The notes under the pieces: model-generated
Databases searched by the model: none
Seen by the model: only the letters and a program-made list of their open reading frames with translations
What the model was told of the DNA's origin: nothing
Part shown: positions 13,848 through 49,428 of the stretch, piece after piece
Layout of the letters: the number at the start of each line of letters is the position of its first letter
How positions within the stretch are numbered: the first letter of the stretch is position 1
Position numbers and translations under genes: made by a program
NCBI GenBank assembly: GCA_963663765.2
Contig: CAXXUA010000011.1
Span: forward strand, 32,001-96,000
DNA length: 64,000 nucleotides
Reading direction: 5' to 3'
From: Candidatus Poribacteria bacterium
GTDB lineage: Bacteria > Poribacteria > WGA-4E > WGA-3G

Positions 13848-13875
13848 TAAACCTTTTAACCAAAAACCCTTCTCT
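13848..13875 (+). promoter_or_regulatory. Putative ECF promoter, class B (TAAACC-N17-TCTCT)
   Basis: Same motif and spacing upstream of all three clade-B sigma genes. Confidence 0.6.
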
Positions 13876-13905
13876 ATATAATAAAACTGGCTCAGGAATT
13901 TGATT

Positions 13906-16608
13906 ATGCACAACGATTTTCTTGTTTTCAGTGACCTAACAGATGCAGAATTAATTCGGCTTGTTCAAAATAAGAATGAGAAAGCTTTTGCAGAACTCAT
14001 GTCCCGTTGGACACCATGGATTAGGGGTGTCATTGTAACGAATTCACGACAACGTCGAGACGTTGAAGAGATTCACACTGACATCTGGGTGGCAGTGTGG
14101 CAAAACATCAGAGAACTCAGAAAAATAGATAGTTTCAGTGCTTGGTTGCATCGTATTGCCTACAACGCTTGCAAGCGATACTACACATTAGCACGGCAAT
14201 CCCGGACTGAAATACCACATCAAGAGTCTGTGATAATTGAAAACATTGACCAATATGCTGCAGCGCGGTATAGAGAAGCACAATTGATTACTGATGTAAA
14301 AGAAGTTATACATTACCTTCCAGAGAAGGTGCGTTCTGTAGCGGAATTATTTTATTTAGAATCGTGGAGTATCAAAGAAATCTCTGAGGAGTTTAATCTT
14401 GCTATTGGTACAGTTAAAACAAAATTAAGAGAGATTCGAAAACTCCTGCGTGCGGAATTTGATGCAGAACCGATAAGAGGAGCAGTAATGCATACAAAAT
14501 ATGTTGAATCACATAGTCCGATTCAGATTGAGACTGATAAGGTAGAACCAAGTCGAATACCTGCAGTGTTTAATGTTGTTTCAAGCGATTCAACAGGTAA
14601 TACCTGGGCACTACCAGAGGGCGCAATTGTGAGGTTTGGTAAAGGAAACATGGGGGATGTTAAGCTATTACCAAATAGCAATTATTTTGCTGTGGGAACA
14701 ACGATTGGAATATGGTGGTATGATGTTTCTTCTATGTTGCCTATTTCGTTGTGGAAACCCTATATAGGTAATATTAGTTCCTTTGATTTCTCTCATGATG
14801 GTAAGTGGATTATCATTGACACGTTAGACGATATTATTATGGTATTGGATGTGCAGAGTGGTGAGAGAGTCATGCAAATTAAGGATCAAGACGGTTTTGG
14901 GGGTATTGCATGCTCAACAAATGGAAAATGGGTTGCAACAGCTGGTGGGGATGGTGTTATAAAGGTTTTGGATGTTCATGAAGGAAAATGTATCGCGCAA
15001 ATGGATCGCGGAAAGCACGAATGGAAATCAAATGATGTTAGGCAACTTGAGTTTTCACCAGATGGAGAATTACTTGCTGCTACAGTAGACAACCCAGAAT
15101 GTTTTTCAGATGATGAACAACTCCTGAATCCTGATGCAGAAGGAACACAGACTTATGTGTGGAAACCTGAAACTGGAGAACCGATCATCAAATTCGCTGG
15201 TAGAGACTATATGTTTTCTTCAGATAGTCATTTGTTAGCGGCAGCATCAATGGATGAGAGCAGGTTAGATGAAAAACGCGTTGACCGGAGTGTTTCGGTG
15301 TGGGATGTAACAACCCGTGAACGCATAGCACACTTTACTGGTCATGACGATTGGATAGATGCTGTTACCATTTCACCTTGTAACCAATTTGTTGCATCCA
15401 GTTCAAGGGATGGCACATTACGGGTCTGGAATCTTGAAAATGAATCACAGATAATGGAATATCCAAACTTTGAATATCCATTCTACACAAGAGATGGTAA
15501 GTTATTTTCATTCATCTATGTTTACTCTTCCAAAATGATTGAGGTCTGGGATGTAGAAAAAAGAGAACAAATGCTGGAGATAGAAGTTGGAATTGGTGGT
15601 TATGATTTCGCTAAATCCTTAGCCATTACAAAGGTTATTGATTTATTAAATGAGCATGAAAAATCACCATCAACCATATCATCTGGTAGTAAGCTTCCAC
15701 AATATAAAATACAAAGTGAACCTGATTTTCCGAATCCCAGTCCATTGATAAATTGGGTTGATGACCAGACACTTACATGTAGCAGAATGGGTTATAGCAT
15801 TCAACTATGGGATGTTAAACAAAAGTGTCAAAGTAATAGATTATTAGCTGATAAATGGATATATCATTACACGATTCTAAATTCTGGAAATATACTTGCC
15901 TTAGAAATAGATGGTAATGCAACGGTGTGGGATAGTAACAAAACCCAAAAATCTGTCATAAGGTTTTCATTGCCATCTGATTGGACCAGTGAAAAGATAT
16001 TTGACCCAAACGGGAATTATCTTGCAGCTGGAAGAAAAGATGGTAATATATATGTGTGGAATCTCAAACAATCTTCCCAGTCTATTTTATCGACAGGACA
16101 TTCAGACGAAATCAACTCATTAGCATTTTCTGCTGATGGATGTAGATTAGTGAGTAGTGCATGTGATAAATCGGTGAGGGTATTTGATCTGCTGTTAGGT
16201 GAGGAGATTGCAATTTTACCTATGAACACTCCATGTTCACCTTTAGCATTAGCGTATTCTCCGTGTGGTAAATTGATTGCTGGAGAATTGGATCAGGAAA
16301 TCCGTTTGTGGTGTGCTAAGGAATTCACAACGAAACTCACAATAACCCAAGGTAAAGTTTACCGACGTACATTTCCACTCGTATTTTCACCTTGTGGAAA
16401 GTATCTCGCAGGAGCAACTTGGTGGCAGGCGGGTAGGGAGAATCTGACAATTCGGATATGGGAAGTTTCTACAGGTGAACAAATTCATTCATTGCAGGGA
16501 CATAATTCATTTGTGCGATCGCTTGCCTTTTCACCGAATGGCTCAATGTTAGCGAGTGGTTGTTCCAATGGCACAATCTTGGTGTGGGATCTGAATCCTT
16601 ATCTATAG
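13906..16608 (+). CDS. ECF sigma factor (clade B)-WD40 repeat fusion, soluble
   Basis: Sigma2 (FSAWLHRIAYNAC) and sigma4 (SIKEISEEFNLAIGTVKTKL), then WD40 repeats (GHDDWIDAV, FSPCG, WD); no TM segment. Confidence 0.88.
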   Translation: MHNDFLVFSDLTDAELIRLVQNKNEKAFAELMSRWTPWIRGVIVTNSRQRRDVEEIHTDIWVAVWQNIRELRKIDSFSAWLHRIAYNACKRYYTLARQSRTEIPHQESVIIENIDQYAAARYREAQLITDVKEVIHYLPEKVRSVAELFYLESWSIKEISEEFNLAIGTVKTKLREIRKLLRAEFDAEPIRGAVMHTKYVESHSPIQIETDKVEPSRIPAVFNVVSSDSTGNTWALPEGAIVRFGKGNMGDVKLLPNSNYFAVGTTIGIWWYDVSSMLPISLWKPYIGNISSFDFSHDGKWIIIDTLDDIIMVLDVQSGERVMQIKDQDGFGGIACSTNGKWVATAGGDGVIKVLDVHEGKCIAQMDRGKHEWKSNDVRQLEFSPDGELLAATVDNPECFSDDEQLLNPDAEGTQTYVWKPETGEPIIKFAGRDYMFSSDSHLLAAASMDESRLDEKRVDRSVSVWDVTTRERIAHFTGHDDWIDAVTISPCNQFVASSSRDGTLRVWNLENESQIMEYPNFEYPFYTRDGKLFSFIYVYSSKMIEVWDVEKREQMLEIEVGIGGYDFAKSLAITKVIDLLNEHEKSPSTISSGSKLPQYKIQSEPDFPNPSPLINWVDDQTLTCSRMGYSIQLWDVKQKCQSNRLLADKWIYHYTILNSGNILALEIDGNATVWDSNKTQKSVIRFSLPSDWTSEKIFDPNGNYLAAGRKDGNIYVWNLKQSSQSILSTGHSDEINSLAFSADGCRLVSSACDKSVRVFDLLLGEEIAILPMNTPCSPLALAYSPCGKLIAGELDQEIRLWCAKEFTTKLTITQGKVYRRTFPLVFSPCGKYLAGATWWQAGRENLTIRIWEVSTGEQIHSLQGHNSFVRSLAFSPNGSMLASGCSNGTILVWDLNPYL

Positions 16609-17068
16609 GATATATGGAGTTTTTTGATAAAAATTAGACAATCACTCAATCGGGGTTGGAAATCCCTCCAACAATAGGTTCGTCTGTAGTATTGATGCCT
16701 ATGAGTTTAGGAAATACCTGCTATAAACTCATCAACTCAGAAGAATAGGTCAACATATTCCGGTATTCGCTATAAACGTGTTCTTATGCCAAATTAATCT
16801 GATTTGTATTGATTTTAATGTGTAGAACACGGGCGGGGACCAAATCAAGTAATCAACGGTATGAATACCTTATGGTATTCCCGGGGTATGAATCATGGAA
16901 CATGCCACACGTGCATACTTCTTCAGGCATTCCTCGCCTAACGTTGAGTGCATAAGACCTGTATAATATGTATTGTTAAGAAATAATAATTAAACCTGAT
17001 CCTACCTTGTTCAATTCCTAATCTATGTGTTTACCGTGTTTCAGAAATCGCGTATATCTATTAGAATA

Positions 17069-17242
17069 ACCTAAGTTGCTACCAATGTAGCACAATCTGT
17101 TAGATTGTGCTACAATAACTTGTGAAAAGGACATCAGAGAACACAAACTGACAGTTTGTGCTACAATAACTTGTGAAAAGGACATTATCCTAAGAATAAA
17201 CGGAATCTGCAGGTCTATAATCCTATTGGTAGCAACTTGCGT
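17069..17242. mobile_element. 174-bp MITE-like element with REP hairpins
   Basis: Inverted ends AAGTTGCTACCAAT / ATTGGTAGCAACTT; direct repeat TAGAATA on both flanks. Confidence 0.6.
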
Positions 17243-17300
17243 TAGAATAGTTGGATTACTTTACATACATATTCAAATTATGTCCTCAATGCAACCTTCA

Positions 17301-17328
17301 ATAATAGTAAACGCGTCATGTTTAATTG
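17301..17328 (+). promoter_or_regulatory. Putative ECF promoter, class A (GCAACC-N17-CGTCA)
   Basis: AAC (-35) and CGT (-10) ECF signature; five copies with a 17-nt spacer. Confidence 0.7.
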
Positions 17329-17352
17329 GAACAACTATTCATGAGTATTTTG

Positions 17353-19961
17353 ATGGAAAACAATGATATTGAACTCATCCAGAATATATTATCAGGTGAT
17401 GAATCTGCTTTCAGTAAGTTGGTAAAAAAATACTTCAAAAGAGCGTTCATGCATTTGTATGGCGGAAAATTGGGGATTATCACATCGCAGAGGAAATCAC
17501 GCAAGATACCTTCCTGCAGGCATACAAAAAATTGCACACCCTAAAGGACCATAATTTATTTGCTGGATGGTTGTATGTCATTGCGAATCGTCGTTGTATT
17601 GCATGGTTGCGTAAGAAAAGACTGGTGTTGCAATCGTTGGATTCAACAAGTGAAGAAATACTGGAAAAAACCGCTTATGCCTACTATGTATCAGAACAAC
17701 GTGAATTTGCATCCGCTGAACGTCGTCGTGAAATTGTTGATAGTCTTCTGGAAAAGTTGCCAGATACTCAACGCACAACGATGATCCTCCACTATCTCGG
17801 AGAAATGTCTTGTCAAGCAATCAGCAAATTATTGGGTGTTTCTTTGAACACGGTAAAAAGCAGGCTTAACCGAGCACGAAATCTATTAAGACTGGAAGAA
17901 CCCATACTTCAAGAGGCACCTAACCAACTACAGGGAGACATTCTTATGGAAAACCAAACGGCATCAAATCCTGTACCATTAAGATCATTTGAAGGTGATG
18001 TTACAACTTGGGAACTCCCTGAAGGTGCGCTTGCGCGATTGGGTCGTGGCAGTGAACCGAAAATGGCGTTCTCACCTGATGGGAACTATCTTGCTATTGG
18101 TACCGGCATAGGGCTCTGGCTATATGATGTTGCTACACTTTCACCTGTAGCATTTTGGGAGGTAGAACAAGGTGTAGTCGCATCTGTAGCCTTTTCTCCT
18201 AACGGCAAATGGATAGCAGTTAACAAATCAGGTGGAAACATTAAGATTTTGGATGTCCAAAATGGTACGTGTGTGACACAGATGAAATCAGAGACCTTCT
18301 TAGAAGGAATGGTCTTTTCCCACGATAACCGTTATCTCGCTGTGGCTTATTGGAGTACTTCTGGTGTTGAAGTTTGGCATGCGGAAACCGGTAAACCGTT
18401 TGCAAAATTGACTGCAGACATTGAAAGAGGTGGTATTTACCGTCCTATTTGTTTCTCACCTGATACTCGACTGATAGCCTCTACGTGCAGCTCAGGAACA
18501 ACTGAAGATGCGGAATCTATAGTATTGTGGAACTTAGCAAGCGGTGAACAAATTGCATATCTCTCAGCGCACACCTATTTGGTAACGTCTCTCTGCTTTT
18601 CACCGTGCGGGAAGTTCCTCGCCTCCGGTGGTGAAGATGGTACTGTGTACGTTTGGGACGTTAGGACATGGCAACAGGTGCAATGTTATACTGAATATGG
18701 TGCAGTATATCGTATTATTCCTTCTTGGACACCCGATGGCATTCTCCGCGCAGCAATTGTCCATTATGATGTGACTGGACCAACAACTATCTCAGTCCGT
18801 GACCTTGAAAATGATGAGCAGCTTTACACGGATCAAGTTTGGGGCAATACCATAGATTTTTCCTACATTGGTGATTGGGGTAACACGGTAGAATTTTCAA
18901 ACGGTTCACAACTTGCGTATGAAGGCAGACATGAATTTATCAACATTAGTACTCTTGAAAATCCTGTCAAACGTCAATTCACGCATTCGCCTATTTCATT
19001 TCCAACCTCAATGGTATTCTCAAATGACGGTAAGACGTTAGCCGTTCAGCATCATCAAGAGGGTGTTGTTTTATGGGATATTGAAAGTAAACGTTCACGT
19101 TCTGCAATTAAAGAGACATCTTCAGGTAAAAACCAGTTTGTATATAAGACTAATGATGGTAAACTCTATGCTGCAAGTATCAAAGTTGACACAGTTACGC
19201 TTTGGCAAGCTGATGGTGATGGGACCCCTTTTATTGAAGCATCTGGACGCTTATACTGGGGCGCGTTTCCTGCATTATCACCAACAGGTACACTATTCGC
19301 CTATGCTGATGAAGATGGTAACATACATGTTTGGGATGTGAATAGTGGAAAAAAACTATATGAATTAACACATCCCCTTGAACCGAGTGATAACAACGTT
19401 GACGATGACGAAGATGATGGTGACTTTGTTTATGAGTTGGAATTCAGTCATGATGGAAAATTACTCGTAAGTGTTTCAAATGCAAGAAATGTCAGAGTGT
19501 GGGACATGGAACTTGGACAAGAAATAGAATTGTTACCAGATGGTAGAGTTACGGGATTTCGGTTTTGTGAGTGTGGACAGCACCTTGTTTGCTTTAGCGA
19601 TGAAGTTATTCCATATTGGGATGTCTTTAACCGAGAATTCTGTGAGGATGATACATGCCTATATGAATCGAAACAGATTGAAATTGAATCGAGGTTGTCA
19701 CTACCCAAAGAGTATGAATATATTGAAAAACCGGTATTTACTACATGTGGACAGTACATTGCATTTATAACATCGTGGAACAAGGTTTCAAAGAGTTTTC
19801 CAATCTGTCTGTTTGAAGTGGAGAGTGGTAATCATCTTATCACCTTTAGGGGACACAGCACAGAGTTGAATGCACTTGTTCTTTCTCCAGACAACAAGCT
19901 TTTGGCCAGTGCGAGTCATGATGGTACTGTCCTGCTTTGGGATTTCGCTCCTTATCTGTGA
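17353..19961 (+). pseudogene. Frameshifted ECF sigma (clade A)-WD40 fusion; WD40 part intact
   Basis: MENNDIELIQNILSGDESAFSKLVKKY in one frame; QKSVHAFVWRKIGDYHIAEEITQDTF continues in the frame of ORF 17532-19961; extra TT at 17434-17435 relative to paralogues. Confidence 0.8.
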
Positions 19962-19991
19962 TCGTCAAAAATCATAAAGATATGACTTTTT

Positions 19992-20019
19992 TAAACCTTT
20001 TACCCCAAAACCCTCCTCT
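19992..20019 (+). promoter_or_regulatory. Putative ECF promoter, class B (TAAACC-N17-CCTCT)
   Basis: Matches 13848 and 44859. Confidence 0.6.
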
Positions 20020-20049
20020 ATACAATAAAACTGGCTCAGGAATTTGTTT

Positions 20050-22749
20050 ATGTACAACGATTTTCTTGTTTTCAGTGACCTAACAGATGAAGAATTAATT
20101 CGGCTTGTTCAAAACAGGAATGAGAAAGCTTTTGTCGAGCTGATGTCCCGTTGGACACCACGAATTAGGGGTGTCATTGTAGCGAATTCACGACAACGTC
20201 GAGACGCTGAAGAGATTCACACTGACATCTGGGTAGCTGTATGGCAAAACATCAGAGAACTCAGAAATGTAGATAGTTTCGGTGCCTGGTTGCATCGTAT
20301 TGCCTACAACGCTTGCAAGCGATACTACACTGTGGCAAGACAATCACGCAGTGAAGTTCCATATCAACATTCTGTGATTGTTGAAAACATTGACCTATAT
20401 GCTGCAGCGCGATATAGAGAAGCACAATTGATTGCTGATGTAAAAGAAGCTGTTCATAACTTACCAGAAAAGGTGCGTTCTGTAGCGGAATTGTTTTATT
20501 TAGATTCGTGGAGTATTAAAGAAATATCGGAGGAATTTGATTTTGCTATTGGTACAGTTAAAACGAAATTAAGAGAGATACGAAAACTCCTGCGTGAGGA
20601 ATTTAATGCAGAACCGATAAGAGGAGACGTTATGTCTTCAAAAAATGTTGAATCACACAGTCCAATTCAGCTTGAGACAAATAAAACCAAACCAAGCCAA
20701 ATGCCCGCACAGCTGAATGTTGTTGCGAACGATCCTACAGGGAATACCTGGGCACTACCAGAGGGCGCAATTGTGAGGTTTGGTAAAGGGAACGACGAAG
20801 ATCTTAAGCTTTCACCTGATGGAAAGTTTATTGCTGTCGGGACTCGGTTAGGGCTATGGTGGTATGATGTTTCCTCAATATCACCTATTTCGTTATGGGA
20901 ACTGGGTAAAGGCTCCGCCAGTTCCATTGATTTTTCACCAGATGGCAAATGGATCGTCATATATACAGGGAACAAAACCCTCAAGGTAATGGATATAAAA
21001 AGCGGAGAGTGCGTCATGCAGATTGATTATCATGATGCCTATAACGATCTTGTATGTTCATCAAATGGAAAATGGGTGGCGACAGCATCTATGAAAGGCA
21101 TTGTAAAGGTGTTGGATATCCAAACTGGTGAGTGCATCGCACAGATGGATCGTGGAGAACACATACGGCAATCAAACGATATTACCAACCTTCAATTTTC
21201 CCCGGATGGTAAATTGCTTGCCGCGCATGCTGGGAACCCCAAACTTTATTCAAACAACGACGAACTCTTGAATCCTGATACAGAGGGACCTCAAATTTAT
21301 ATTTGGTGCCCTCAAACGGGTAAGATGATACTCAAGTTTGCAGGACAAGAATTTACCTTCTCTTCAGACAGTCGCTTGTTAGCGGTTACATGTCCTGACG
21401 AAACCTTGAACGAAGACGAAAGCGTTGACCGTTGGGTTTCAGTATGGGATGTAACATCAAGGGAACTCCTCACACAATTTACAGGACATGACGATTGGAT
21501 AGATGCAGTCGCTTTTTCACCTTGTGGACAACTCGTTGCATCAAGTGATGGGGTCCTACGGTTATGGGATATTGCAACAAGTTCAGAAGTAAAGTTTTTT
21601 CCGGACTTTCCGGACTTTAACAATTATTTTTTCGCAGAGGATGGAGAACTGTTTGCAGTAATAATTCCTAATTCACCTAATTTGTCTATTGAAATATGGA
21701 ATGTAGAGCATCGTGAAAAGATATTTGAGATATCTGATATTGATGGTTTGGCATATTCTTTTGCCCGGGTCTATATAGAACACGTGGTTAAAACAGCATC
21801 CTACAAACAGACAGATGCCCAAATACCGGCGTTCTCAAGAATGCAAGAACCTCAGTTCCCCCCGTGGATCGTGCTGCAGATAAATTGGTTAGATGACCAG
21901 ATACTTGTGAGCAATGATGTCAAAGGAATAGTGTTGTGGGATGTCGACAAGAAATGTTACCGAGATACAGTGTCCATAGATGGCTGGCTGGATGCTATCA
22001 CCGTTCTACCCTCTGGTAAAATGCTGGTTTCTTATTTTCCTGATGAGGATAGCATGTGTGTTGCCAGCATACCTGATCAACTAATTGCTGAGTTCACTTT
22101 TCCTGATGAACTATTGGAATTGAATCGTTATCGCGCATTTGCACCGACTGGTGAGTATGTTGCGACAGGAAGTAGTGAAGGCACAGTCTATGTGTGGAAT
22201 CTCAACCAACCTGAGCACCCCATACGTCTCAAGGGACATACAGATTACGTTTACAGAGTTGCGTTTTCGTGGGATGGGAAACGACTCGTGAGTGGGGCAA
22301 GTGACGAGACTGCCCGTGTGTGGGATGTGGGATTAGGCAAAGAAATTACCAGATTGCCTATGGACGAGTCTTGCACAGTGTGGGGATTTGTGTTCTCACC
22401 CTGTGGTAGCCTTATCGCGGGATCCTTGGATAATGAGATTCGTTTGTGGTGCGCTAAGCAGTTCACAAAGGTCCTTTCAATACCGCAACCGGAGAAGAAC
22501 AGGCAGACTTATCCACTTGCATTTTCACCGTGCGGTCAGTACCTTGCAGCAGCGACTTCGTGGCCGGAGGGTTCGGAAAATATTGCAGCAATTCGGATAT
22601 GGGATGTCGCTACAGGTGAACAAATTCATGCTTTCCAGGGACATAACTCACTCGTGCAATCGCTTGCGTTTTCACCGAATGGTACAATGTTAGCGATTGG
22701 TTGTAACAATGGTACAATCCTGGTGTGGGACTTGAGACCGTATCTATAG
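20050..22749 (+). CDS. ECF sigma factor (clade B)-WD40 repeat fusion, soluble
   Basis: Sigma part nearly identical to the 13906 gene; FSPCG-type WD40 repeats; ends WDLRPYL. Confidence 0.88.
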   Translation: MYNDFLVFSDLTDEELIRLVQNRNEKAFVELMSRWTPRIRGVIVANSRQRRDAEEIHTDIWVAVWQNIRELRNVDSFGAWLHRIAYNACKRYYTVARQSRSEVPYQHSVIVENIDLYAAARYREAQLIADVKEAVHNLPEKVRSVAELFYLDSWSIKEISEEFDFAIGTVKTKLREIRKLLREEFNAEPIRGDVMSSKNVESHSPIQLETNKTKPSQMPAQLNVVANDPTGNTWALPEGAIVRFGKGNDEDLKLSPDGKFIAVGTRLGLWWYDVSSISPISLWELGKGSASSIDFSPDGKWIVIYTGNKTLKVMDIKSGECVMQIDYHDAYNDLVCSSNGKWVATASMKGIVKVLDIQTGECIAQMDRGEHIRQSNDITNLQFSPDGKLLAAHAGNPKLYSNNDELLNPDTEGPQIYIWCPQTGKMILKFAGQEFTFSSDSRLLAVTCPDETLNEDESVDRWVSVWDVTSRELLTQFTGHDDWIDAVAFSPCGQLVASSDGVLRLWDIATSSEVKFFPDFPDFNNYFFAEDGELFAVIIPNSPNLSIEIWNVEHREKIFEISDIDGLAYSFARVYIEHVVKTASYKQTDAQIPAFSRMQEPQFPPWIVLQINWLDDQILVSNDVKGIVLWDVDKKCYRDTVSIDGWLDAITVLPSGKMLVSYFPDEDSMCVASIPDQLIAEFTFPDELLELNRYRAFAPTGEYVATGSSEGTVYVWNLNQPEHPIRLKGHTDYVYRVAFSWDGKRLVSGASDETARVWDVGLGKEITRLPMDESCTVWGFVFSPCGSLIAGSLDNEIRLWCAKQFTKVLSIPQPEKNRQTYPLAFSPCGQYLAAATSWPEGSENIAAIRIWDVATGEQIHAFQGHNSLVQSLAFSPNGTMLAIGCNNGTILVWDLRPYL

Positions 22750-22768
22750 ACAACAAGGAGTAAACATA

Positions 22769-24829
22769 ATGCAAAATCGTAGACCTGCAGAGCTTAATGT
22801 TGTTCCGAACGACCCGACTGGGAATACCTGGGCATTACCAAAAGACGCAATTGTGCGATTTGGAACAGGGGATCAGAAGTCTGCTAAACTTTCCCCCGAT
22901 GGCAGGTATCTTGCCGTTGGCACTGGGATAGGTCTATGGTGGTATGATACCACGTCTATGTTGCCGATCTCGCTCTGGGAAACGGAAAGAAATATTAGTT
23001 CAATTGATTTCTCTCATGATGGCAGACAGATTATGATTTGCAATTGGGATCGTATCATTAAGGTCATGGATGTTCAAACTGCTGAATGTATTTATGAAAT
23101 GGAAGTGCAAGGTTCAAATTTCACCTTATCATCAAACAGCAAGTGGATTGCATCATCTGATGGGCAAGGAATTGTTAGAGTACATGATATACAGAAAGGT
23201 GAATTTTTAGCACAGATGGATCGTGGAGAACATAAATGGAAGTCAAACGATGTTTCTCAGCTTGATTTTTCACCAGATGGCAACCTCCTTGCTGGCACTG
23301 CACAAAATCAAAAATTCTGGTCGCCTGACGATGACCGTGTGCTTATCCCCGACAGAGAAGGCGAACAAATATACCTATGGAATCCAGAAACAGGGGAGTT
23401 AATACTCAAATTTGCGGGCAACGATTTTGTCTTTTCGGAAGATAGTCGTTTGTTGGCAGGCGCATCTCCGGATGATTCCCATTCCTCCAGTGATGTAGAA
23501 CGTATTGACCACTGTGTCTCGGTGTGGGATATTAAAAACAGGGAACGTATTGCCCACTTCACAGAACATGACGATTGGGTACAGGCTATCACTTTTTCAC
23601 CGTGTGGCAAGTTCATCGCTTCATGTGATGAAACGCTGCGAGTATGGGAACTGGCAACCGGCACGCAAATGATGGCGTATGAGAAGTGCTATGATTCCTT
23701 CTACTCCCCGGATGGTGTGTTATTTGGGTTTGTATTTGTTACCGATGATACGATAGAGGTTTGGAACATAGATTCTCAGCAAAAAGTGCTGGAACTACCT
23801 CAAAGTATTAATTTTCAGTTCGCAAAAGGTTGGGTTTTCGTCTACATGCAAGAACATCAATTTCAAATCGCTGAAATAATTGCTAACAAACAAATAAATA
23901 GCATACAGTGGACACATCCAATAGAACATAAAATTCATTTTGCCACACCGGACCCATTGGTAGTTTGGGTAGATGATCAGACTCTTGCGAGTGGGAGCCT
24001 TAGGCAAGGTATCGTGTTATGGGATATTGTGGAAAAACGGGTTCGTGAAAGGTTGTTAGATGGAGAATATATCCATATCTTCACAGTTCTACCTGATGGT
24101 AAAATGTTAGCTGCTTTAGTAAGTTCTCTTTACGAACCGACTAAGGTGTGGGATGTAGCAAATCCTGAAAAACCCATCACTGAGTTCCATACAAATTTGT
24201 GGTGGGAAAGGCACCAAGCGTTCACTGCCGCAGGCGATCTTATGGCTGCAGGGAGTAACGACGGACCAGTTTATATCTGGAACTTACAGCAACCTGAACA
24301 TCCAGTACTTCTTACGGGACATACAGATTCCATTGAGGTAGTGGTGTTTTCCCCAAATGGAGGGATGCTTGCGAGTGGGGCATTTGACAATACTACACGT
24401 TTGTGGGATGTTGCGTTGGGCAAAGAAATTGGCACATTGCCTGTAGACGTGCCTCTTACAACAAGGTCAATAAAATTCTCTCCTTGTGGTAACATAATAG
24501 CTGGAGGATTGGGCAGCGAAATCCGTTTGTGGTGTGCTGAGAAAATTACAACAATATGCACAATTCCACAGCCAGACAACAACCAACGGACTTATGCACT
24601 CGCTTTTTCACCGTGTGGAAAATATCTCGCATCGGGAACATGGTGGGAGAAGGGCATGCAAAAAATGGCTATCCGTTTATGGGACGTTGCTACCGGTGAA
24701 AATATCCATACTTTCTGGGGGCATAACTCAGATGTGCAATCGCTTGCGTTTTCACCAAATGGGGCAATGCTTGCAAGTAGTAGTTTTGATGGTACAATCT
24801 TAATCTGGGATTTGAAACCGTATCTGTAG
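22769..24829 (+). CDS. WD40 repeat protein (no sigma domain)
   Basis: SD AAGGAG; begins like the post-sigma part of the 20050 gene (LNVV.NDPTGNTWALP); WD40 repeats. Confidence 0.9.
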   Translation: MQNRRPAELNVVPNDPTGNTWALPKDAIVRFGTGDQKSAKLSPDGRYLAVGTGIGLWWYDTTSMLPISLWETERNISSIDFSHDGRQIMICNWDRIIKVMDVQTAECIYEMEVQGSNFTLSSNSKWIASSDGQGIVRVHDIQKGEFLAQMDRGEHKWKSNDVSQLDFSPDGNLLAGTAQNQKFWSPDDDRVLIPDREGEQIYLWNPETGELILKFAGNDFVFSEDSRLLAGASPDDSHSSSDVERIDHCVSVWDIKNRERIAHFTEHDDWVQAITFSPCGKFIASCDETLRVWELATGTQMMAYEKCYDSFYSPDGVLFGFVFVTDDTIEVWNIDSQQKVLELPQSINFQFAKGWVFVYMQEHQFQIAEIIANKQINSIQWTHPIEHKIHFATPDPLVVWVDDQTLASGSLRQGIVLWDIVEKRVRERLLDGEYIHIFTVLPDGKMLAALVSSLYEPTKVWDVANPEKPITEFHTNLWWERHQAFTAAGDLMAAGSNDGPVYIWNLQQPEHPVLLTGHTDSIEVVVFSPNGGMLASGAFDNTTRLWDVALGKEIGTLPVDVPLTTRSIKFSPCGNIIAGGLGSEIRLWCAEKITTICTIPQPDNNQRTYALAFSPCGKYLASGTWWEKGMQKMAIRLWDVATGENIHTFWGHNSDVQSLAFSPNGAMLASSSFDGTILIWDLKPYL

Positions 24830-24847
24830 GATACATAGAGATTTTTG

Positions 24848-31299: not shown

Positions 31300-31327
31300 G
31301 CAACCTATCCACCGAAAAAACGCGTCA
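31300..31327 (+). promoter_or_regulatory. Putative ECF promoter, class A (GCAACC-N17-CGTCA)
   Basis: Motif intact; separated from its gene by a MITE insertion. Confidence 0.68.
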
Positions 31328-33695: not shown

Positions 33696-33723
33696 GCAAC
33701 CCATCCACTGAAAAATTGTGTCA
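33696..33723 (+). promoter_or_regulatory. Putative ECF promoter, class A (GCAACC-N17-TGTCA)
   Basis: Conserved motif and spacing. Confidence 0.62.
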
Positions 33724-33761
33724 CTATAATTGTATCCCTAAAATGAACATTGAGGTGTCGG

Positions 33762-36599: not shown

Positions 36600-36672
36600 T
36601 GTCTTCAATCATAATATCTGCGTTGGTAATAGCACAATTCATTGTTCGTGTTATGTACTCTGTGACAATTCT

Positions 36673-36700
36673 GCAACCTATTTGCCGAAGAAACGCGTCA
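36673..36700 (+). promoter_or_regulatory. Putative ECF promoter, class A (GCAACC-N17-CGTCA)
   Basis: Conserved motif and spacing. Confidence 0.7.
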
Positions 36701-39463: not shown

Positions 39464-39732
39464 ATTTCACTTGCCTAATGTTTAACGTGAGTTTGATAAA
39501 TCAGAATTTAGGACTCGATATAATACGCTAAATTAAGAAATCTACGGTATGAATCATGGAGCATACCACACGTGCATGCTTCTTTAGGCATTCCCCCTGT
39601 GGTATTCTCCATTGGTTAGGAAACCGCACTTAAGTCAATGTCATAGTAGTTTTGATTTCACTACAATCTTCATTCATAGGGAATGCAATAGTCCTATCAA
39701 GAATTACAGTAATTCTGAATTATGTCATTTAT

Positions 39733-39760
39733 GCAACCTTTCCACTGCATAATCGCGTCA
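39733..39760 (+). promoter_or_regulatory. Putative ECF promoter, class A (GCAACC-N17-CGTCA)
   Basis: Conserved motif and spacing. Confidence 0.7.
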
Positions 39761-39800
39761 CCTATTATTGTATGCATAAAATGAACATGGGTGGAATTTA

Positions 39801-42536: not shown

Positions 42537-42589
42537 TTTTATATATATAAACTCTAAGGCAACACAAATCCTAAGGAACCCACAATCAG

Positions 42590-44554: not shown

Positions 44555-44858
44555 ATTTGGACTGTAAGGGTGTGTCCAGTATGTGTTACTTGTCTGAACC
44601 AAGATTTTCAGGATTTACAGATTTTCAGGATTTACCCCATCAAGGGTTTTTGATATGCTTTATGCTCTCTTTTGGAATAGGATTGGATAAGAAAAATCTT
44701 GATAATCTGCTAATCCCGGGGAATGCCAAAAGGCATTCATACCGTTGATTTCTTGATTTCTTGATTTGAAAATCCTGGTTCAAACAAAGAAAAAACATGA
44801 CACATCAATACAAAATACATCTATTAGACAACATCAGACAGGTAATTTTTCATTTTTT

Positions 44859-44886
44859 TAAACCCTCACCTTATATCCCTTTCTCT
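44859..44886 (+). promoter_or_regulatory. Putative ECF promoter, class B (TAAACC-N17-TCTCT)
   Basis: Same boxes as 13848/19992 with a diverged spacer. Confidence 0.6.
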
Positions 44887-44922
44887 TTATATTAAAACCT
44901 AATTGATTTTTTGTAGATTTCT

Positions 44923-47481
44923 ATGGATATGGAAAATCTAAACGATCTTACAGATATAGAACTTATTCAGCGCGTCCAAAACCGTGATGAAGCCGCATTT
45001 GCGGAACTCATGTCCCGTTGGACGCCACGGATTTGGCGTATCGTTGTCTCAAAATCAAGGCAACATCGGGATGCGGAAGAAATTCATACTGATGTCTGGA
45101 TGGCTGTGTGGGAAAATATAGGGGGTCTCCGTAATATAGATAGTTTTGGTGCATGGCTGCGACGCATTGCATATAACGCTTGTAAGAGATATTATTCTTC
45201 TCATCGCCGCTCACGAGACGAAATCCCACAGAGCGATGCAGATTTAGTGGAACATATTGACCAAGATGCACCTGCACGTTATCAGGAAGCACAATTACGC
45301 GCAGATGCCAGAGAAGCGGTGAATCATCTTCCGCATCGGGTACGTCCTATAGCGATATTGTACTATCTTGAATCATGGAGTGTCAAAGACATTGCACACA
45401 AACTTAACTTAGCTATAGGCACAGTCAAGACAAGATTAAGAGAAGTCCGTTCACTTCTGCGGAAGGAGTTTGCTGTTGAACCTCAACAAGGAGATATTAT
45501 GTCGTTAGAATCCGTTGGATCACAAAATCTTGCGAATTATATTGAAAACTATCTACCGAAAGGCGCAATAACACGGTTCGGAAAAGGTTGTGTATTTGGT
45601 TTAGCATATTCGCCAGATGGCACCAGACTTGCTTTAGCAAGCACAATAGGTGTCTGGATGATCGATGTAGCAACCGGTGAGGAAATCAATCTGTTAACTG
45701 GACATACTGGTCATTTAACTGGACATACTTATTATGTCGAATACGTTGTTTTCAGTCCTGATGGTAAAACACTTGCAAGTCTAAGTAAAGGATACCAAGG
45801 CGATGATGTTATTCGTTTATGGGATGCTGCAACTGGTGATTTTATAGCGGTACTAACAGAGGATACATATCTTGTTGTATTTAGTCCTGATGGTAAAACG
45901 CTGGCAAGCGGCGGTGGTGGAGTAATTCATTTATGGGATGGTGCCACATTCGAACTAAAAACAACTCTCATAGGACACACACCACCAGTCAAAACGTTAA
46001 CGTTCAATCCAGATGGCAGCACACTCGCAAGCGGTGGTATTGATGAGGTAATCCGTTTATGGGATGTTACCACTGGTGAACTACAGTTAACATTTGCAGG
46101 ACACGCAAATTCTGTCGATTTTCTGAAGTATTCTCCAGATGGAAAGGTGCTTGTCAGTCAAGGTGGGGATAACAATGTTTGTTTATGGAATGCACGGACT
46201 GGTGAATTTTTGCGCATACTTACTACAGAAGACCCTTCTTGGCACGGTCTGAATATTGACTTTTCAAAAGATGGGAAAACTCTTGTGAGTGTGAATTCCG
46301 ATGAAAATGTCCGATTGTGGAACCCACATACCGGTGAGCAACTAAAAACAATAAAACAAGATAGAGAGCTTGAGGTAGTGCAGTATTCTCCAGATGGTAG
46401 AATATTTGCATGTAGTGAGTGTTATGGAGAAGCAACAGTCCAACTATTTGATGCTGCCACGGGAGAGCCATTACATTTTCTTAAAATGCCTGAACATGCA
46501 GAATGGGTTACTGATTTTCAATTTTCTCCAGATAGGCAGACACTTGCCGTTAAAACAGCGGAAGAAATATATTTCTGGGATGTGAATACTGGTGAACTTG
46601 AAAAGACAATCACCGGATATTCTGATGTAGTAAGTAGTGTAACATATTCTCCTGGTGGGAGAACATTAGCGAGCTTAGACAATTTCGTCCGTATTTGGGA
46701 CTTAGACACGCAGAAACTCGTAAAAACACTTTCCCCTAAAACACTTTCTGTAAAAGGATCAATAAGGGCAATCGCGTATTCTCCTAATGGGGAGATACTC
46801 GCTTGTGGAACTATGGATAAAACGATAGTACTATGGGATGTCCACAAGTGGAAAAAAAGAGGTGTACTCAAAGGACATACAGATGGCGTATCCTCGATAA
46901 CCTTTAGTCCAGATGGACAAACACTCGCTAGTGGCTGCTGGAACGGGACGATCCGATTGTGGAATGCTCACACAGGAGAAAACTTAAAAACCTTTGATAG
47001 GCATGCATCAAGTGTTCGCACAGTTTTATTTTCACCTAATGGACAGATCTTAGCCAGTATTGAAGAAGATGAAACAATTCGTTTTAGGAATGTTGCAACG
47101 GGGAAGCTTGTGAATGCTATAAAAATGGAAACAGATGTTGATGTCTGTTCTATAGATTTTTCTCCTGATGGGACAACCTTTGTTACCGCAGACGACAGAA
47201 CGAAAATCAATTTTTGGGATGTGGTAACTGCGGATCCAAAACCTATGACACACTTAGAAGCAAAAGGTTATTATGCTGTCCTTTCACCAGATGGGAATAC
47301 ACTTGCATGTGCTGATGTTGGGGATGAAATATTATTGTGGGATGTTGTCACAGGAAAACTTCTGAAAACTTTAAAAGGGCATATAAGTGGTATTAATTCT
47401 ATAGTCTTTTCTTCAGATGGTAAATCACTCGCGAGTTGCTGTAGGGACAGCACAGTAATTTTATGGGATTTAACGACGTAG
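44923..47481 (+). CDS. ECF sigma factor (clade B)-WD40 repeat fusion, soluble
   Basis: LTDIELIQRVQNRDEAAFAELMSRWTP, FGAWLRRIAYNAC, AIGTVKTRL; FSPDG-type repeats; no TM. Confidence 0.9.
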   Translation: MDMENLNDLTDIELIQRVQNRDEAAFAELMSRWTPRIWRIVVSKSRQHRDAEEIHTDVWMAVWENIGGLRNIDSFGAWLRRIAYNACKRYYSSHRRSRDEIPQSDADLVEHIDQDAPARYQEAQLRADAREAVNHLPHRVRPIAILYYLESWSVKDIAHKLNLAIGTVKTRLREVRSLLRKEFAVEPQQGDIMSLESVGSQNLANYIENYLPKGAITRFGKGCVFGLAYSPDGTRLALASTIGVWMIDVATGEEINLLTGHTGHLTGHTYYVEYVVFSPDGKTLASLSKGYQGDDVIRLWDAATGDFIAVLTEDTYLVVFSPDGKTLASGGGGVIHLWDGATFELKTTLIGHTPPVKTLTFNPDGSTLASGGIDEVIRLWDVTTGELQLTFAGHANSVDFLKYSPDGKVLVSQGGDNNVCLWNARTGEFLRILTTEDPSWHGLNIDFSKDGKTLVSVNSDENVRLWNPHTGEQLKTIKQDRELEVVQYSPDGRIFACSECYGEATVQLFDAATGEPLHFLKMPEHAEWVTDFQFSPDRQTLAVKTAEEIYFWDVNTGELEKTITGYSDVVSSVTYSPGGRTLASLDNFVRIWDLDTQKLVKTLSPKTLSVKGSIRAIAYSPNGEILACGTMDKTIVLWDVHKWKKRGVLKGHTDGVSSITFSPDGQTLASGCWNGTIRLWNAHTGENLKTFDRHASSVRTVLFSPNGQILASIEEDETIRFRNVATGKLVNAIKMETDVDVCSIDFSPDGTTFVTADDRTKINFWDVVTADPKPMTHLEAKGYYAVLSPDGNTLACADVGDEILLWDVVTGKLLKTLKGHISGINSIVFSSDGKSLASCCRDSTVILWDLTT

Positions 47482-47514
47482 GAATCATACATCAAGAATA
47501 GAGATAAGGAAGAC

Positions 47515-49428
47515 ATGAACATGCAAAAACCGCAACTTTCCACACAGTGGAGGCTTCCCCCAGGTGCCAAGAAACGTATCGGAAAAGGAGGGATAAATGA
47601 GATTAAGTACTTTCCGGATGGCACACGACTCGCTGTTGCCGGCACAATAGGGGTCTGGATTTATGATGTGCAAACCTGCAAACCCCTTGAACTGATTACT
47701 GGACATACTGGTCCAGTCAATTCATTAGTATTCAGTCCAGATGGTGGAACGTTTGCAACCGCGAGTGATGATAAGACTACACGTTTGTGGGATACCATTA
47801 CAGGTGAGAACAAAGCAAGTTTCGTAGGACATAAGGACGTTGTAAACTCCGTCGCCTTCAGTCCAGATGGCGAATTGCTTGCCACTGCAAGTGACGACAA
47901 AACGATTGGTATCTGGAATTTGCACACGGGAGAACAGATAGCAAAGCTTGAGGGGCATACGGAGAAAGTTTTTTCAGCAGTGTTTTCGCCAGATGGTACT
48001 GTGCTTGCCAGTAGTGAGGCTTGGGGTGGAAAAGGCGGAATTTGGGTTTGGGATGCAAACACCTACGAATTCCTAAAATTGTTTGAGGGAGAGACAGATT
48101 GGATAGAATATATCGTATACAGTCCTGATGGTAACATACTCATTAGTCGAGAAACTTGTGTAGAAGTTAATTTTTGGGATGCTAACACAGGTAAAAAACT
48201 GAAATCGTGTGAAGCAGAAAGTTGGATGAGTGATTTTTCCCCCATTACATTTACTTCTGATGGAAACTCATTCGCTACTGGAATACATGGCGGTGATGTC
48301 TGTCTTTGGGATATTGACACTGGAAGATTGTTGAAAAAGTTTGAACTTGAGGAAGATTTAGATTCTTTGCCCTCTTCTGTAGCATTTTCACCCGATGGTG
48401 AAACAATTGCTTGTGCAAGTGAGGATGGAACGATTCGGTTTTGGGACGTATACACCGCTAAAATTTCAAGAGTGATTATGGAACATACACCTCATCACTC
48501 TTCTACGCAAAAAACAGAGGGGACACATCCACCATCTCAACGAACCTTTTCTGTTGCGTATTCTCCAAATGGCAGGACTCTCGCAAGTTGCTATGGGAAC
48601 GAAATTCATTTTAGGAATCCAGATACAGGAGAAATCCAAACAACTATCACAGGACCGCGTGAAAACGTCCGTTCAGTCATGTATTCATCAGATGGAAAAA
48701 TACTTGCAAGTGCTGAGGATACAACAAAAGCTCGATTATGGGATACTCAAAACGGAAGATTCCTTGGTTCCTTCGTTGGGCATAAGGAAAGTATATCTGC
48801 AGTGGCGTTTTCTCCAGACGGTCGCATGTTTGCCACTGGTAGTCATGACAACACAATCTGTTTATGGGAAGTCCGTAAAGGTGAACTGTATCTTATTGGC
48901 GATTTGTTATTGACACTGGCAGGACACACTGATAAAGTTACCGATGTGACCTTCTCGCCAGATGGAGATACTTTTGCTTCAAGCAGTGATGATAGCACAG
49001 TCCGATTATGGGATGTCAAAACTGGAAATCCGAGGAAAACACTTATTGGACACACTGCAAGAGTCCACGCAGTGGAATACTCACCAAATGGTAGTGTCCT
49101 TGCCAGCGGAGGATGTGATGGAACGGTCCACCTCTGGAACAGTCAGACCGGTGAACTCAGACAGACTCTCAACACACATAAACAATGCGTATATTCAGTG
49201 GCATTTTCTCTAAATGGTAAGATTATTTCTTGTGGAACGAATGGTATAATGTACTTATGGAACATGCAAACAGGAGAATTGCTACATACCTATAGTGGAC
49301 ATACGGATGTGATTGATAGTATCGCATATTCACCGGATGGTAAGACACTCGCGAGTGCAAGTAGAGACGGCACTGTGCTGTTGTGGGGTTTAGTCGCTTT
49401 GGACAAAGAAGGCGAGACACTGGTATGA
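47515..49428 (+). CDS. WD40 repeat protein (no sigma domain, no signal peptide)
   Basis: WRLPPGAKKRIGKG leader; many GH..V.S..FSPDG...WD repeats. Confidence 0.9.
   Translation: MNMQKPQLSTQWRLPPGAKKRIGKGGINEIKYFPDGTRLAVAGTIGVWIYDVQTCKPLELITGHTGPVNSLVFSPDGGTFATASDDKTTRLWDTITGENKASFVGHKDVVNSVAFSPDGELLATASDDKTIGIWNLHTGEQIAKLEGHTEKVFSAVFSPDGTVLASSEAWGGKGGIWVWDANTYEFLKLFEGETDWIEYIVYSPDGNILISRETCVEVNFWDANTGKKLKSCEAESWMSDFSPITFTSDGNSFATGIHGGDVCLWDIDTGRLLKKFELEEDLDSLPSSVAFSPDGETIACASEDGTIRFWDVYTAKISRVIMEHTPHHSSTQKTEGTHPPSQRTFSVAYSPNGRTLASCYGNEIHFRNPDTGEIQTTITGPRENVRSVMYSSDGKILASAEDTTKARLWDTQNGRFLGSFVGHKESISAVAFSPDGRMFATGSHDNTICLWEVRKGELYLIGDLLLTLAGHTDKVTDVTFSPDGDTFASSSDDSTVRLWDVKTGNPRKTLIGHTARVHAVEYSPNGSVLASGGCDGTVHLWNSQTGELRQTLNTHKQCVYSVAFSLNGKIISCGTNGIMYLWNMQTGELLHTYSGHTDVIDSIAYSPDGKTLASASRDGTVLLWGLVALDKEGETLV

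Follow-up and report, generated by a model that had tools for sequence, protein, structure and literature searches.

A tandem array of WD40 double-propeller genes joined to two kinds of ECF sigma module in Candidatus Poribacteria

How should a row of co-oriented genes, in which beta-propellers are repeatedly joined to sigma factors, be understood in a sponge-symbiont genome of the Candidatus Poribacteria? The window, which is the whole stretch of 64,000 nucleotides that was analysed, carries such an array on the plus strand at positions 13900-49428. A first-pass annotation had read it as a diversifying receptor repertoire with two transcriptional outputs. Thirteen co-oriented ORFs match the Pfam WD40 family (E 1e-36 to 1e-113), the number counted in that annotation, and a fourteenth ORF is co-oriented but has no Pfam match to WD40. 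The genes are as follows.

13900..16608, + strand: sigma B with Cys-rich (C-type) WD40 double propeller, 902 aa, no TM, predicted cytoplasmic
17353..19961, + strand: sigma A (no TM) with C-type WD40, broken by a 2-bp insertion near 17433-17434
20044..22749, + strand: sigma B with C-type WD40, 901 aa, no TM
22769..24829, + strand: C-type WD40, no sigma; propeller groups with those of 13900 and 20044
24845..26836, + strand: C-type WD40, no sigma
26873..28159, + strand: accessory ORF, 428 aa, no Pfam, NCBIfam or PADLOC family
29136..31274, + strand: C-type WD40, no sigma; mosaic with 17532 and 31522
31522..33588, + strand: C-type WD40; first ~20 codons are a remnant of a sigma-A N-terminus, sigma deleted
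33750..36599, + strand: sigma A, TM (aa 222-248) and D-type WD40
36746..39463, + strand: sigma A, TM (aa 218-244) and D-type WD40, 905 aa
39801..42536, + strand: sigma A, TM (aa 218-241) and D-type WD40, 911 aa
42590..44554, + strand: D-type WD40, no sigma; N-terminal hydrophobic segment aa 10-31, predicted exported or anchored
44923..47481, + strand: sigma B with D-type WD40, 852 aa, no TM
47515..49428, + strand: D-type WD40, no sigma, no signal segment; 33 nt after the 44923 gene

All 13 WD40 genes carry a leader, LP.xA..R[LFIVM], with G[KRTS]G-like residues and a conserved first blade after it. The genes had been described as starting with this leader; the motif itself stands in 13 of 13, but in the sigma-WD40 fusions it opens the WD40 module (aa 162-319) instead of standing at the protein N-terminus. 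The genes at 20044, 22769, 24845 and 26873 form a tight run headed by 20044, with gaps of 19, 15 and 36 nt, and 42590 starts 53 nt after the 39801 gene. The intergenic gaps contain REP-like hairpins and promoter-like motifs, and positions 13000-50000 gave no match to an Rfam RNA family. Homologues of the accessory ORF 26873 in relatives mostly adjoin WD40 genes; a sigma2-like N-terminus considered for this ORF is unsupported (hhalign probability 1.7%, E 0.029). Orthologues of 47515 are 76% identical in the related genome G014 and 71% identical in G005.

Judged from domain matches and the predicted fold, the array proteins are WD40 repeat beta-propellers (PF00400) with multiple WD repeats. The AF2 model of 44923 contains two confident propellers (pLDDT 80-96 over residues 215-849), and its nearest solved structure found by Foldseek is 2ymu_A, a “highly repetitive propeller structure” (E 4e-48, 35% identity). 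The likeness lies in the tandem WD40 double propeller; unlike 2ymu_A, the array fusions carry a sigma domain and have low internal DNA repeat identity by TRF. With low pLDDT values of 28-63 in the sigma4 region and the linker, and a pTM of 0.67, the model offers no indication that sigma and propeller are held in a fixed contact. Two propeller subfamilies, the Cys-rich C-type and the D-type, are separated with an SH-aLRT support of 99 in a tree of 121 rows, in agreement with the division made earlier.

The two propeller types appear to differ in location. A simple Kyte-Doolittle hydropathy scan, rather than a dedicated TM predictor, locates a single hydrophobic helix within aa 218-248 of 33750, 36746 and 39801, as had been noted for these sigma A, TM and D-type genes, and an N-terminal one in 42590; by the same scan, the clade B fusions and the 17353 gene have none. 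Across the genome, a hydrophobic segment before the leader is found in none of 19 C-type propellers under three thresholds, in 60-86 of 97 free D-type propellers, and in 9 of 10 D-type propellers fused to sigma, the single exception among the ten being 44923. The Cys-rich propellers are thus predicted to be cytoplasmic and the D-type propellers mostly exported.

The N-terminal modules belong to the ECF sigma factors (group 4 of sigma70), by their domain content of sigma2 and sigma4 only. Six intact genes (13900, 20044, 44923, 33750, 36746 and 39801) match Pfam Sigma70_r2 and r4_2 and score 54-100 bits with TIGR02937 (cut-off 42.9), and the solved SigW and sigma-E align over almost the whole ECF core of the fusions. 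An Atlas look-up of the sigma-A module returned generic ECF clusters only. Seven sigma-bearing genes and one remnant had been counted in the first-pass annotation; six are intact and the remnant of 20 codons is real, but the seventh gene is broken. Its true ATG is at 17353, and its coding sequence runs in two frames (17326-17544 and 17532-19961), with r4_2 still matched. Comparison with the intact orthologues of two relatives, G005 (870 aa) and G014 (890 aa), both of the sigma A, no TM, C-type architecture, places a 2-bp insertion at about 17433-17434. A homopolymer sequencing error was rejected as the cause because the insertion adjoins an A run of unchanged length; a sequencing error may nevertheless be present at this point. 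In 31522, about 20 clade-A residues are fused straight to the WD40 leader. With one fusion of the window broken and one reduced to a remnant, part of the array is decaying.

The two sigma clades proposed earlier, A and B, separate with a support of 100/100 in a tree of 26 rows from which the broken 17353 gene was omitted. No anti-sigma gene had been recognised earlier, and none of the 14 ORFs of the array matches an anti-sigma family in Pfam. Within aa 1-325 of the fusions, Pfam matches at E up to 0.01 comprise only sigma regions and generic HTH matches, and in the sigma A fusions sigma4 is separated from the helix by only ~35 residues.

Upstream of the genes of each clade lies a promoter-like motif, at the following positions.

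13846..13878, + strand: sigma-B-type promoter-like motif TTTAAACC-N19-TCTATA, 22 nt upstream of ORF 13900
17290..17317, + strand: sigma-A-type promoter-like motif TGCAACC-N17-CGTC
19990..20022, + strand: sigma-B-type promoter-like motif
31300..31327, + strand: sigma-A-type promoter-like motif GCAACC-N16-CGCGTCA, upstream of the remnant gene 31522
33696..33723, + strand: sigma-A-type motif variant GCAACC-N16-TGTGTCA
36672..36699, + strand: sigma-A-type promoter-like motif
39732..39759, + strand: sigma-A-type promoter-like motif
44857..44889, + strand: sigma-B-type promoter-like motif

Counted in the very upstream regions from which the motifs were derived, the strict B motif has 3 matches in the window where 0.03 would be expected, and the strict A motif has 4 where 0.13 would be expected. 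All six strict B motifs of the genome lie 20-34 nt before the six sigma-B genes, and of 24 strict A motifs 9 precede sigma-A genes and 15 lie elsewhere. In other species the motif blocks are conserved and the spacers variable: the regular expression finds the B motif at 10 of 17 sigma-B genes, with a variant -10 recognised by eye at 4 more, and the A motif at 4 of 5 sigma-A genes. The A-type motif is retained before sigma-less WD40 genes as well, namely the remnant 31522, where a palindromic REP-like insert lies between the motif and the start codon, and the exported, array-heading gene C15:196788. Paralogous descent could account for part of the motif similarity. Each sigma clade has a candidate ECF-like promoter motif of its own upstream of its genes, which is new here and fits the two transcriptional outputs suggested by the first-pass annotation.

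The modules have been exchanged. All four combinations of sigma clade and propeller type occur in the window, as first described, with the A and Cys-rich combination broken here and intact in G005 and G014. AU tests reject monophyly of the WD40 parts of the B-fused genes (delta lnL 193 / 203, p 4e-34 / 2e-34) and of the A-fused genes (p 6e-7 and 4e-20), the constraints being run with the N-terminal and the C-terminal 280 aa of WD40 in fast searches on 25 rows. The sigma and WD40 histories are incongruent at either end of the propeller, as the earlier reading had anticipated, and the modularity is real. Within the array, paralogue pairs differ between modules: 33750 and 36746 have a dS of 0.135 in the N-module vs 1.03 in the WD40 part, with N-modules 92-99% identical in nucleotides, and 13900 and 20044 have 0.32 vs 1.22. 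The 29136 gene is a mosaic, 86-97% identical to 17532 in mid-gene and 90-99% identical to 31522 at the 3' end. The identity steps between module regions of neighbouring genes are sharp, and gene conversion of N-modules within the genome accounts best for the sharp mosaics.

Near-identical stretches of up to ~1 kb (92-99%) between neighbouring genes, in a draft genome of 15 contigs, are also what collapsed or chimeric repeats would leave behind. We nevertheless give hardly any credence to the array or its mosaics being an assembly artefact: comparable arrays of the same architecture lie inside multi-megabase contigs of G003, G005 and G006, the first two of which are listed as single-contig genomes, the ORFs of 1.9-2.8 kb are intact with one exception, and unique flanking genes are contiguous with the array in the window.

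The array is not the special locus that it first seemed, being part of a genome-wide family: 207 ORFs of the genome match WD40 and lie in many arrays, and 126 of them have the leader. The genome holds ~27 long fusions of sigma clades A and B. Same-genus genomes contain similar arrays that differ in gene content, and 14 of 15 such genomes have the sigma-B N-module. In the relatives, the flanking genes 12358 and 49813 have orthologues separated by >250 kb, and by >1 Mb in 4 of 5, so the locus is not comparable by its flanks. Each of the four architectures turns up again elsewhere in the genus, and the shuffling is therefore old.

These observations bear on the fast-diversifying, immune-like repertoire of the earlier reading, whose variable propellers would recognise proteins of host or phage and drive two transcriptional programmes. 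The propeller centre is indeed variable (mean pairwise identity 7-35%, compared with 37-60% over the first and last ~80 columns), and the differing gene content of congeneric arrays and the incongruent trees are in line with such a repertoire. However, propeller orthologues of different species are 57-87% identical, with gene-wide dN/dS values of 0.19-0.35 in the comparisons with computable dS, and the four architectures are old and common to the genus. The high-identity internal repeats of shuffling WD40 receptors are lacking as well, TRF having found no large internal repeats in the array and a single 78-nt duplication. Of the 13 propellers, seven belong to the C-type, predicted to be cytoplasmic, and PADLOC identified no defence system in the array, only a generic WD40-repeat overlap with one candidate model. 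A fast-diversifying repertoire of this kind is improbable as the explanation of the array, and the diversifying part of the earlier reading is not supported.

A second possibility is that the WD40 proteins are themselves the product, with a structural or host-interacting, “eukaryote-like” role, and that the sigma module only renders expression self-amplifying or constitutive while the propeller senses nothing. Most members of the family are sigma-less (126 leader-bearing ORFs vs ~14 sigma-WD40 fusions), sigma-less WD40 genes follow three fusions of the window at 19-53 nt, A-type motifs precede some sigma-less WD40 genes, and the AF2 model does not dock sigma onto the propeller with confidence, all of which would suit this proposal. 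On the other hand, the sigma A-TM module is joined elsewhere in the genome to BNR/Sortilin propellers, a C-type lectin domain and an M16 domain, the pattern expected of a sensor chassis with exchangeable inputs. The fusions also stay intact across species, and their genus-wide dN/dS of 0.10-0.35 points to purifying selection in both the sigma and the WD40 parts. We regard this second possibility as unlikely.

An obligatory sigma-less WD40 partner downstream of the fusions was considered and rejected. Although three fusions of the window have such a neighbour, the sigma A-TM-WD40 genes C3_498898, C5_1564731 and C15_184185 have no same-strand ORF within 600 nt downstream, and the next ORFs after C5_1728222 and C15_190233 are non-WD40. 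The partner is thus not obligatory.

The array fusions can be compared with several known systems. Sigma factors of ECF57 (ECF01-Gob/ECF57) are confined to Planctomycetes in the classification (100%; Casas-Pastor et al. 2021, PMC7826278). In the passages cited, they are described as having a fully conserved Cys pair, one Cys in sigma2 and one in sigma4, and a long C-terminal extension with about two TM helices and, in some members, WD40-like propellers; the same passages report many paralogues per genome, no separate anti-sigma, no conserved target promoter motif and no experimentally characterised member (PMC7826278, PMC8999054). By this description, the array fusions resemble ECF57 in the combination of an ECF core with a long WD40 extension, in the lack of an anti-sigma gene and in the many paralogues. 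The sigma2 Cys is invariant in clade A (20 of 20) and is present in clade B (6 of 6), a possible likeness, judged from the description and not from columns aligned to ECF57 sequences. The sigma4 Cys is found in 13 of 20 clade A members, including all four copies of the window, and in none of 6 of clade B, which may set them apart from the described pair. The host phylum also differs, being Poribacteria; the best 120 clusters listed consist of sigma A and TM fusions of ~905-950 aa with 70-85% identity, and the named ones are from Candidatus Poribacteria. Clade A has one predicted helix instead of about two, clade B and 17353 have none, clade B forms a separate TM-less group, and each clade here has a conserved motif. 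The array sigmas are set apart from ECF57 by its description rather than by group HMM scores.

ECF41- and ECF42-type sigma factors carry a fused regulatory C-terminal extension of modest size, SnoaL-like or TPR, and have no anti-sigma gene. Sigma B and the sigma A without TM are similar in having a soluble extension on the ECF core and no anti-sigma gene, whereas their extension is a double propeller of ~650 aa, whose control over the core would be by analogy. In the sigma/anti-sigma hybrids of the IutY type (ECF243) and in ECF52/53, a sigma, one helix and an extracytoplasmic domain form a single chain, and the IutY-type hybrids are described as activated by regulated proteolysis (PMC8999054). 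As far as that description goes, the sigma A fusions share the succession of sigma, one helix and outer domain in one chain, but have no detectable anti-sigma domain between sigma4 and the helix, and their outer domain is WD40. Multidomain proteins of ECF sigma and WD40 are expanded in Gemmataceae (PMC11032199, PMC8567305), and WD40 accessory domains are reported on sigma70 factors of cyanobacteria (PMC11119718). The array shares with these the union of sigma and WD40 by lineage-specific expansion; tandem arrays, two clades with cognate promoters and a cytoplasmic/exported split go unmentioned in the passages cited. To our knowledge, no ECF sigma with a WD40 extension has been characterised experimentally. 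A literature search, subscription papers being outside its scope, found no description of ECF sigma-WD40 fusions in Poribacteria. The Poribacteria array is a variant, particular to its lineage, of a putative one-protein signalling device of a kind already known.

Our proposal is that the array is a tandem birth-and-death array, one portion of a very large family of WD40 proteins with double propellers in Poribacteria; the family has in common its first strand, LPxGAxARLGKG, and its last blade, both conserved. Of the 13 array genes, seven probably encode or once encoded single-chain ECF sigmas, in which the propeller would replace the anti-sigma as the regulatory or sensory part, and the sigma A and sigma B modules are unrelated to each other. 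The array would change through duplication, loss of sigma modules, old swaps between clades and propeller types, and ongoing gene conversion. This anatomical and evolutionary part is highly probable.

The signalling mechanism is, in our judgement, an even bet. Sigma A, usually connected through a single membrane helix to an exported propeller of the D-type, would be kept inactive at the membrane. Partner binding by the propeller would release or activate it, probably through proteolysis on the model of other sigma/anti-sigma hybrids. In sigma B and the TM-less sigma A, the cytoplasmic propeller may act in cis on the core in the manner of ECF41/ECF42. Since the genes of each clade are preceded by a candidate ECF-type promoter of their own, the fusions probably autoregulate and co-transcribe the sigma-less propellers that follow them. 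From sequence, we infer sigma activity, propeller control, autoregulation and the existence of a ligand. We lean towards the whole explanation, with its anatomy, evolution and signalling mechanism taken together. A bolder version, which we hold to be doubtful, is a plug-and-play signalling kit, in which a membrane-tethered and a cytoplasmic sigma/promoter pair, orthogonal to each other, would have had their input propellers swapped between the compartments and would count sigma-less propellers among their outputs. A partner, possibly a sponge-host protein, would on binding induce more of the matching propeller, exported or cytoplasmic.

The features new here are the clade-specific promoter motifs, the cytoplasmic/exported split of the propellers, the incongruent histories and the homogenisation of N-modules. 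The array offers a compact test set, in which two sigma clades with candidate cognate promoters, seemingly orthogonal, occur in TM-tethered and soluble versions, with sigma-less and sigma-deleted natural controls adjacent. The promoter pairs may serve as parts for synthetic biology if their orthogonality is true. The abundance of WD40 proteins in sponge symbionts has long been noted, and the array ties it to the control of transcription. If the propellers do bind host proteins, they would provide a route by which the symbiont senses its host.

Fourteen co-oriented ORFs, named here by their start positions, span 13900-49428 of the window (G000 C11:32001-96000; GC ~0.41), and 13 of them match Pfam WD40 (PF00400, E 1e-36 to 1e-113) together with many propeller families. 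The leader LP.xA..R[LFIVM] opens all 13 WD40 modules and is followed by a conserved first blade, which confirms the 13 co-oriented WD40 genes with a common leader recognised in the first-pass annotation. Scans of the N-termini identified Sigma70_r2 and Sigma70_r4_2 in 13900, 20044, 44923, 33750, 36746 and 39801; these six also exceed the cut-off of TIGR02937, the general ECF model. The seventh sigma gene, with its ATG at 17353, is divided between two frames by a 2-bp insertion at ~17433-17434 relative to the intact orthologues of two relatives, and 31522 begins with ~20 residues of the clade-A sigma N-terminus, fused straight onto the WD40 leader; the original count of seven sigma N-termini and one remnant stands, with six of the seven intact. 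In 33750, 36746 and 39801 a single hydrophobic helix comes after the sigma domain, and 42590 has one at its N-terminus. GC-rich palindromic REP-like hairpins are situated in the large gaps (16609-17325, 28160-29135 and about 31380-31450), and one such hairpin is inserted upstream of 31522, between its start and a sigma-A-type promoter. A 78-nt direct duplication (35315-35463; 1.9 copies, 88% matches) in the propeller of 33750 repeats part of a blade.

The sigma domains split into two clades, A and B, at a support of 100/100 and on long branches, in a tree of 26 rows from which the broken 17353 was omitted. The propeller tree, built from the N-terminal 280 aa of 121 propellers with the leader (5 of 126 were too short and were omitted), contains a Cys-rich clade of 18 propellers of the 'FSPCG' type, termed C-type (SH-aLRT 99), seven of them from the window; the remaining 103 rows are termed D-type. 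One to three SPCG motifs are present in each C-type propeller and none in D-type propellers, and the Cys content is 1.5-2.9% and 0.3-1.7%, respectively. No hydrophobic segment was detected ahead of the leader in any of 19 C-type proteins at each of three thresholds, and such a segment is present in 60-86 of 97 free D-type proteins and in 9 of 10 sigma-fused ones, the exception being 44923. Because of these counts, C-type propellers are predicted to be cytoplasmic and D-type propellers mostly exported or anchored. As first proposed, the two clades and two propeller types occur in all four combinations, the A+C copy of the window being broken.

Sigma-propeller architectures in the window (TM, membrane helix)
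Clade B + C-type: 13900, 20044
Clade A without TM + C-type: 17353 (broken)
Clade A + TM + D-type: 33750, 36746, 39801
Clade B + D-type: 44923

The modularity of the fusions proposed in the first-pass annotation is upheld by AU tests (25 rows, LG+G4, fast searches) in which the propellers of each group were forced into one clade; monophyly is rejected at both ends of the propeller, and the sigma and WD40 histories are incongruent.

AU tests of propeller monophyly
3 B-fused genes: first 280 aa, delta lnL 193, p 4e-34; last 280 aa, delta lnL 203, p 2e-34
7 A-fused genes: first 280 aa, p 6e-7; last 280 aa, p 4e-20
All fused genes: first 280 aa, p 4e-45; last 280 aa, p 4e-38

The pair 33750/36746 is 96% identical in the sigma parts and 56% in the propellers, and the corresponding values for 13900/20044 are 86% and 52%. 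Sliding DNA identity between 33750 and 36746 is 92-99% from ~-60 to +920 nt and then drops sharply to 60-70%. A 540-nt island with sharp edges (86-97% identity) is shared by 29136 and 17326, a frame of the broken gene, and the final 270 nt of 29136 and 31522 are 90-99% identical, beginning at a sharp step. At synonymous sites the propellers are 4- to 8-fold more diverged than the N-modules (dS 1.03 vs 0.135 for 33750/36746; 1.22 vs 0.32 for 13900/20044), which suggests that recombination or gene conversion has acted, and not only selection; propeller dN/dS is ~0.3 in the same comparisons.

Clade-specific blocks are found in the upstream regions of all clade members, the B motif being TTTAAACC-N18-20-TCWWTA and the A motif TGCAMCC-N15-18-CGTC. 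In the window the B motif is present 3 times (0.03 expected) and the A motif 4 times (0.13 expected). The motifs were counted in the same sequences from which they were derived, and it is therefore their exclusivity and cross-species conservation that are informative. Genome-wide, all six copies of the B motif are located 20-34 nt before the six clade-B genes, and 9 of the 24 copies of the A motif precede clade-A genes, with 15 elsewhere. Of 4255 ORFs, 42 have a looser A motif at ≤350 nt upstream; among these 42 are 12 clade-A genes, the remnant gene 31522 and the sigma-less exported WD40 gene C15_196788, which heads another array. Among 17 clade-B genes of relatives, 10 match the B regex, four more have a variant -10 (by eye) and three closely trail another gene; of five clade-A genes, four match the A regex. 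The spacers differ among species. ECF promoters consist of an AAC-containing -35 and a short -10, and by sequence the A and B motifs show the expected -35/-10 form. The proposal of two transcriptional outputs survives in the form of two clade-specific, promoter-like motifs. Strict A motifs at C15:196473 and C15:224483 / C3:37947 precede genes without sigma, which are candidate regulon members; the first is ~290 nt upstream of C15_196788, which bears a signal, and the other two are an identical pair, one copy of which precedes the gene for a 326-aa protein whose N-terminus bears a hydrophobic segment. Another repeated promoter-like element, GCACCCTTTTCGATCTAAnACTGTGTCT, is found upstream of ~9 G000 ORFs, including near-identical 190-211-aa proteins that are TIR-like by eye (C6:168790-169362, C15:512457-513029, C15:520057-520692 and others).

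The window array is one piece of a genome-wide system. Among 6798 ORFs of ≥100 aa in the 6.35-Mb G000 genome, 207 match two WD40 queries taken from the window, and the leader is present in 126 of these, within the first 60 residues in 99. At least eight further WD40 tandem arrays exist (e.g., C2 17-31 kb, C4 559-575 kb, C5 723-742 kb, C15 196-211 kb), and half of the ~14 sigma-WD40 fusions sit in the window. The genome has 21 clade-A and six clade-B members. The sigma A+TM module acts like a chassis to which different outer domains can be attached; outside the window it is again fused to WD40, to BNR/Sortilin-Vps10 propellers in seven genes, to CarboxypepD_reg together with a C-type lectin domain, and to an inactive Peptidase_M16 domain (loci L001-L011). 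For the sigma, TM and linker part of 36746, the best 120 clusters listed are all close homologues (70-85% identity, mostly 905-950 aa), and those that bear a name carry 'sigma-70 family RNA polymerase sigma factor [Candidatus Poribacteria bacterium]'. Three clade-B genes have an FtsZ/tubulin GTPase domain as fusion partner (E 1.5e-48 to 2e-37), with FtsZ_C in two and the clade-B promoter motif before all three; no account of such a fusion was found in the literature searched.

Clade-B sigma–FtsZ/tubulin fusions (L012-L014)
C5:603526-604746, minus strand
C6:276016-277800, plus strand
C13:379590-381374, plus strand

The sigma-WD40 fusion is an already known kind of protein, since such proteins are reported for ECF57, Gemmataceae and cyanobacteria. 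ECF57 of Planctomycetes is described with ~two TM helices, WD40-like repeats in some members and a conserved Cys pair, without a conserved promoter and without experimental study so far (PMC7826278, PMC8999054); ECF-WD40 proteins are reported to be expanded in Gemmataceae (PMC11032199, PMC8567305), and cyanobacterial sigma70 factors to carry WD40 as an accessory domain (PMC11119718). In contrast to ECF57 as so described, the window fusions are poribacterial and have one TM helix or none, and ECF57 membership fails on phylum and TM number. The sigma2 Cys is present in 20 of 20 clade-A and 6 of 6 clade-B sequences and the sigma4 Cys in 13 of 20 and 0 of 6, respectively, a pattern that counts neither for nor against the ECF57 Cys pair. 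No description of sigma-WD40 fusions in Poribacteria was found in the open-access literature searched.

The first and last ~80 columns of the propeller alignment are the most conserved (37-60%; centre 7-35%). The AF2 model of 44923, based on a 12-sequence alignment (mean pLDDT 79.8, pTM 0.67), contains ~60 strands in residues 215-849 (pLDDT 80-96) that form two propellers; pLDDT is ~70-80 in sigma2 and 28-63 in sigma4 and the linker. In this model the leader residues constitute the first strand, which would presumably close the last blade. Among solved structures 2ymu_A matches best, and eukaryotic double propellers come next.

ORF 26873-28159 (428 aa) terminates the 20044 gene run; Pfam and NCBIfam searches gave no family match, and no paralogue was found in G000. 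Three of the 15 same-genus genomes and none of 10 others contain full-length homologues (46-60% identity), and five of the six copies adjoin co-oriented WD40 genes, four of them closing a C-type run on its downstream side. A sigma2-like N-terminus received no support from hhalign.

Of 15 same-genus genomes, 14 contain the clade-B N-module, i.e., the N-terminal sigma-bearing part; in other families of the order the matches are only weak (30-34% identity) and confined to 5 of 10 genomes. In eight relatives (G002, G004, G006, G008, G010, G012, G013 and G014) clade-B N-modules head ~1412-1454-aa frames absent from G000. In five relatives the orthologues of the two array-flanking genes are widely separated. 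The arrays of four relatives comprise the same building blocks in other numbers, and the content of the locus is variable, as the reading in the first-pass annotation would predict.

Arrays in relatives
G014: 15 genes, intact A+C of 890 aa
G005: 8 genes, intact A+C of 870 aa
G006: 11 genes
G003: 4 genes

Identity between orthologous propellers is 57-87%, and their dN/dS is 0.19-0.35, compared with 0.10-0.25 for the N-modules of orthologues; some ortholog pairs have a propeller that is more recent than the N-module. The rapid diversification initially suggested is not supported by these propeller values or by the age of the architectures. Since the four architectures occur in several relatives, the shuffling behind them is older than the genus, and the N-modules are homogenised within genomes.
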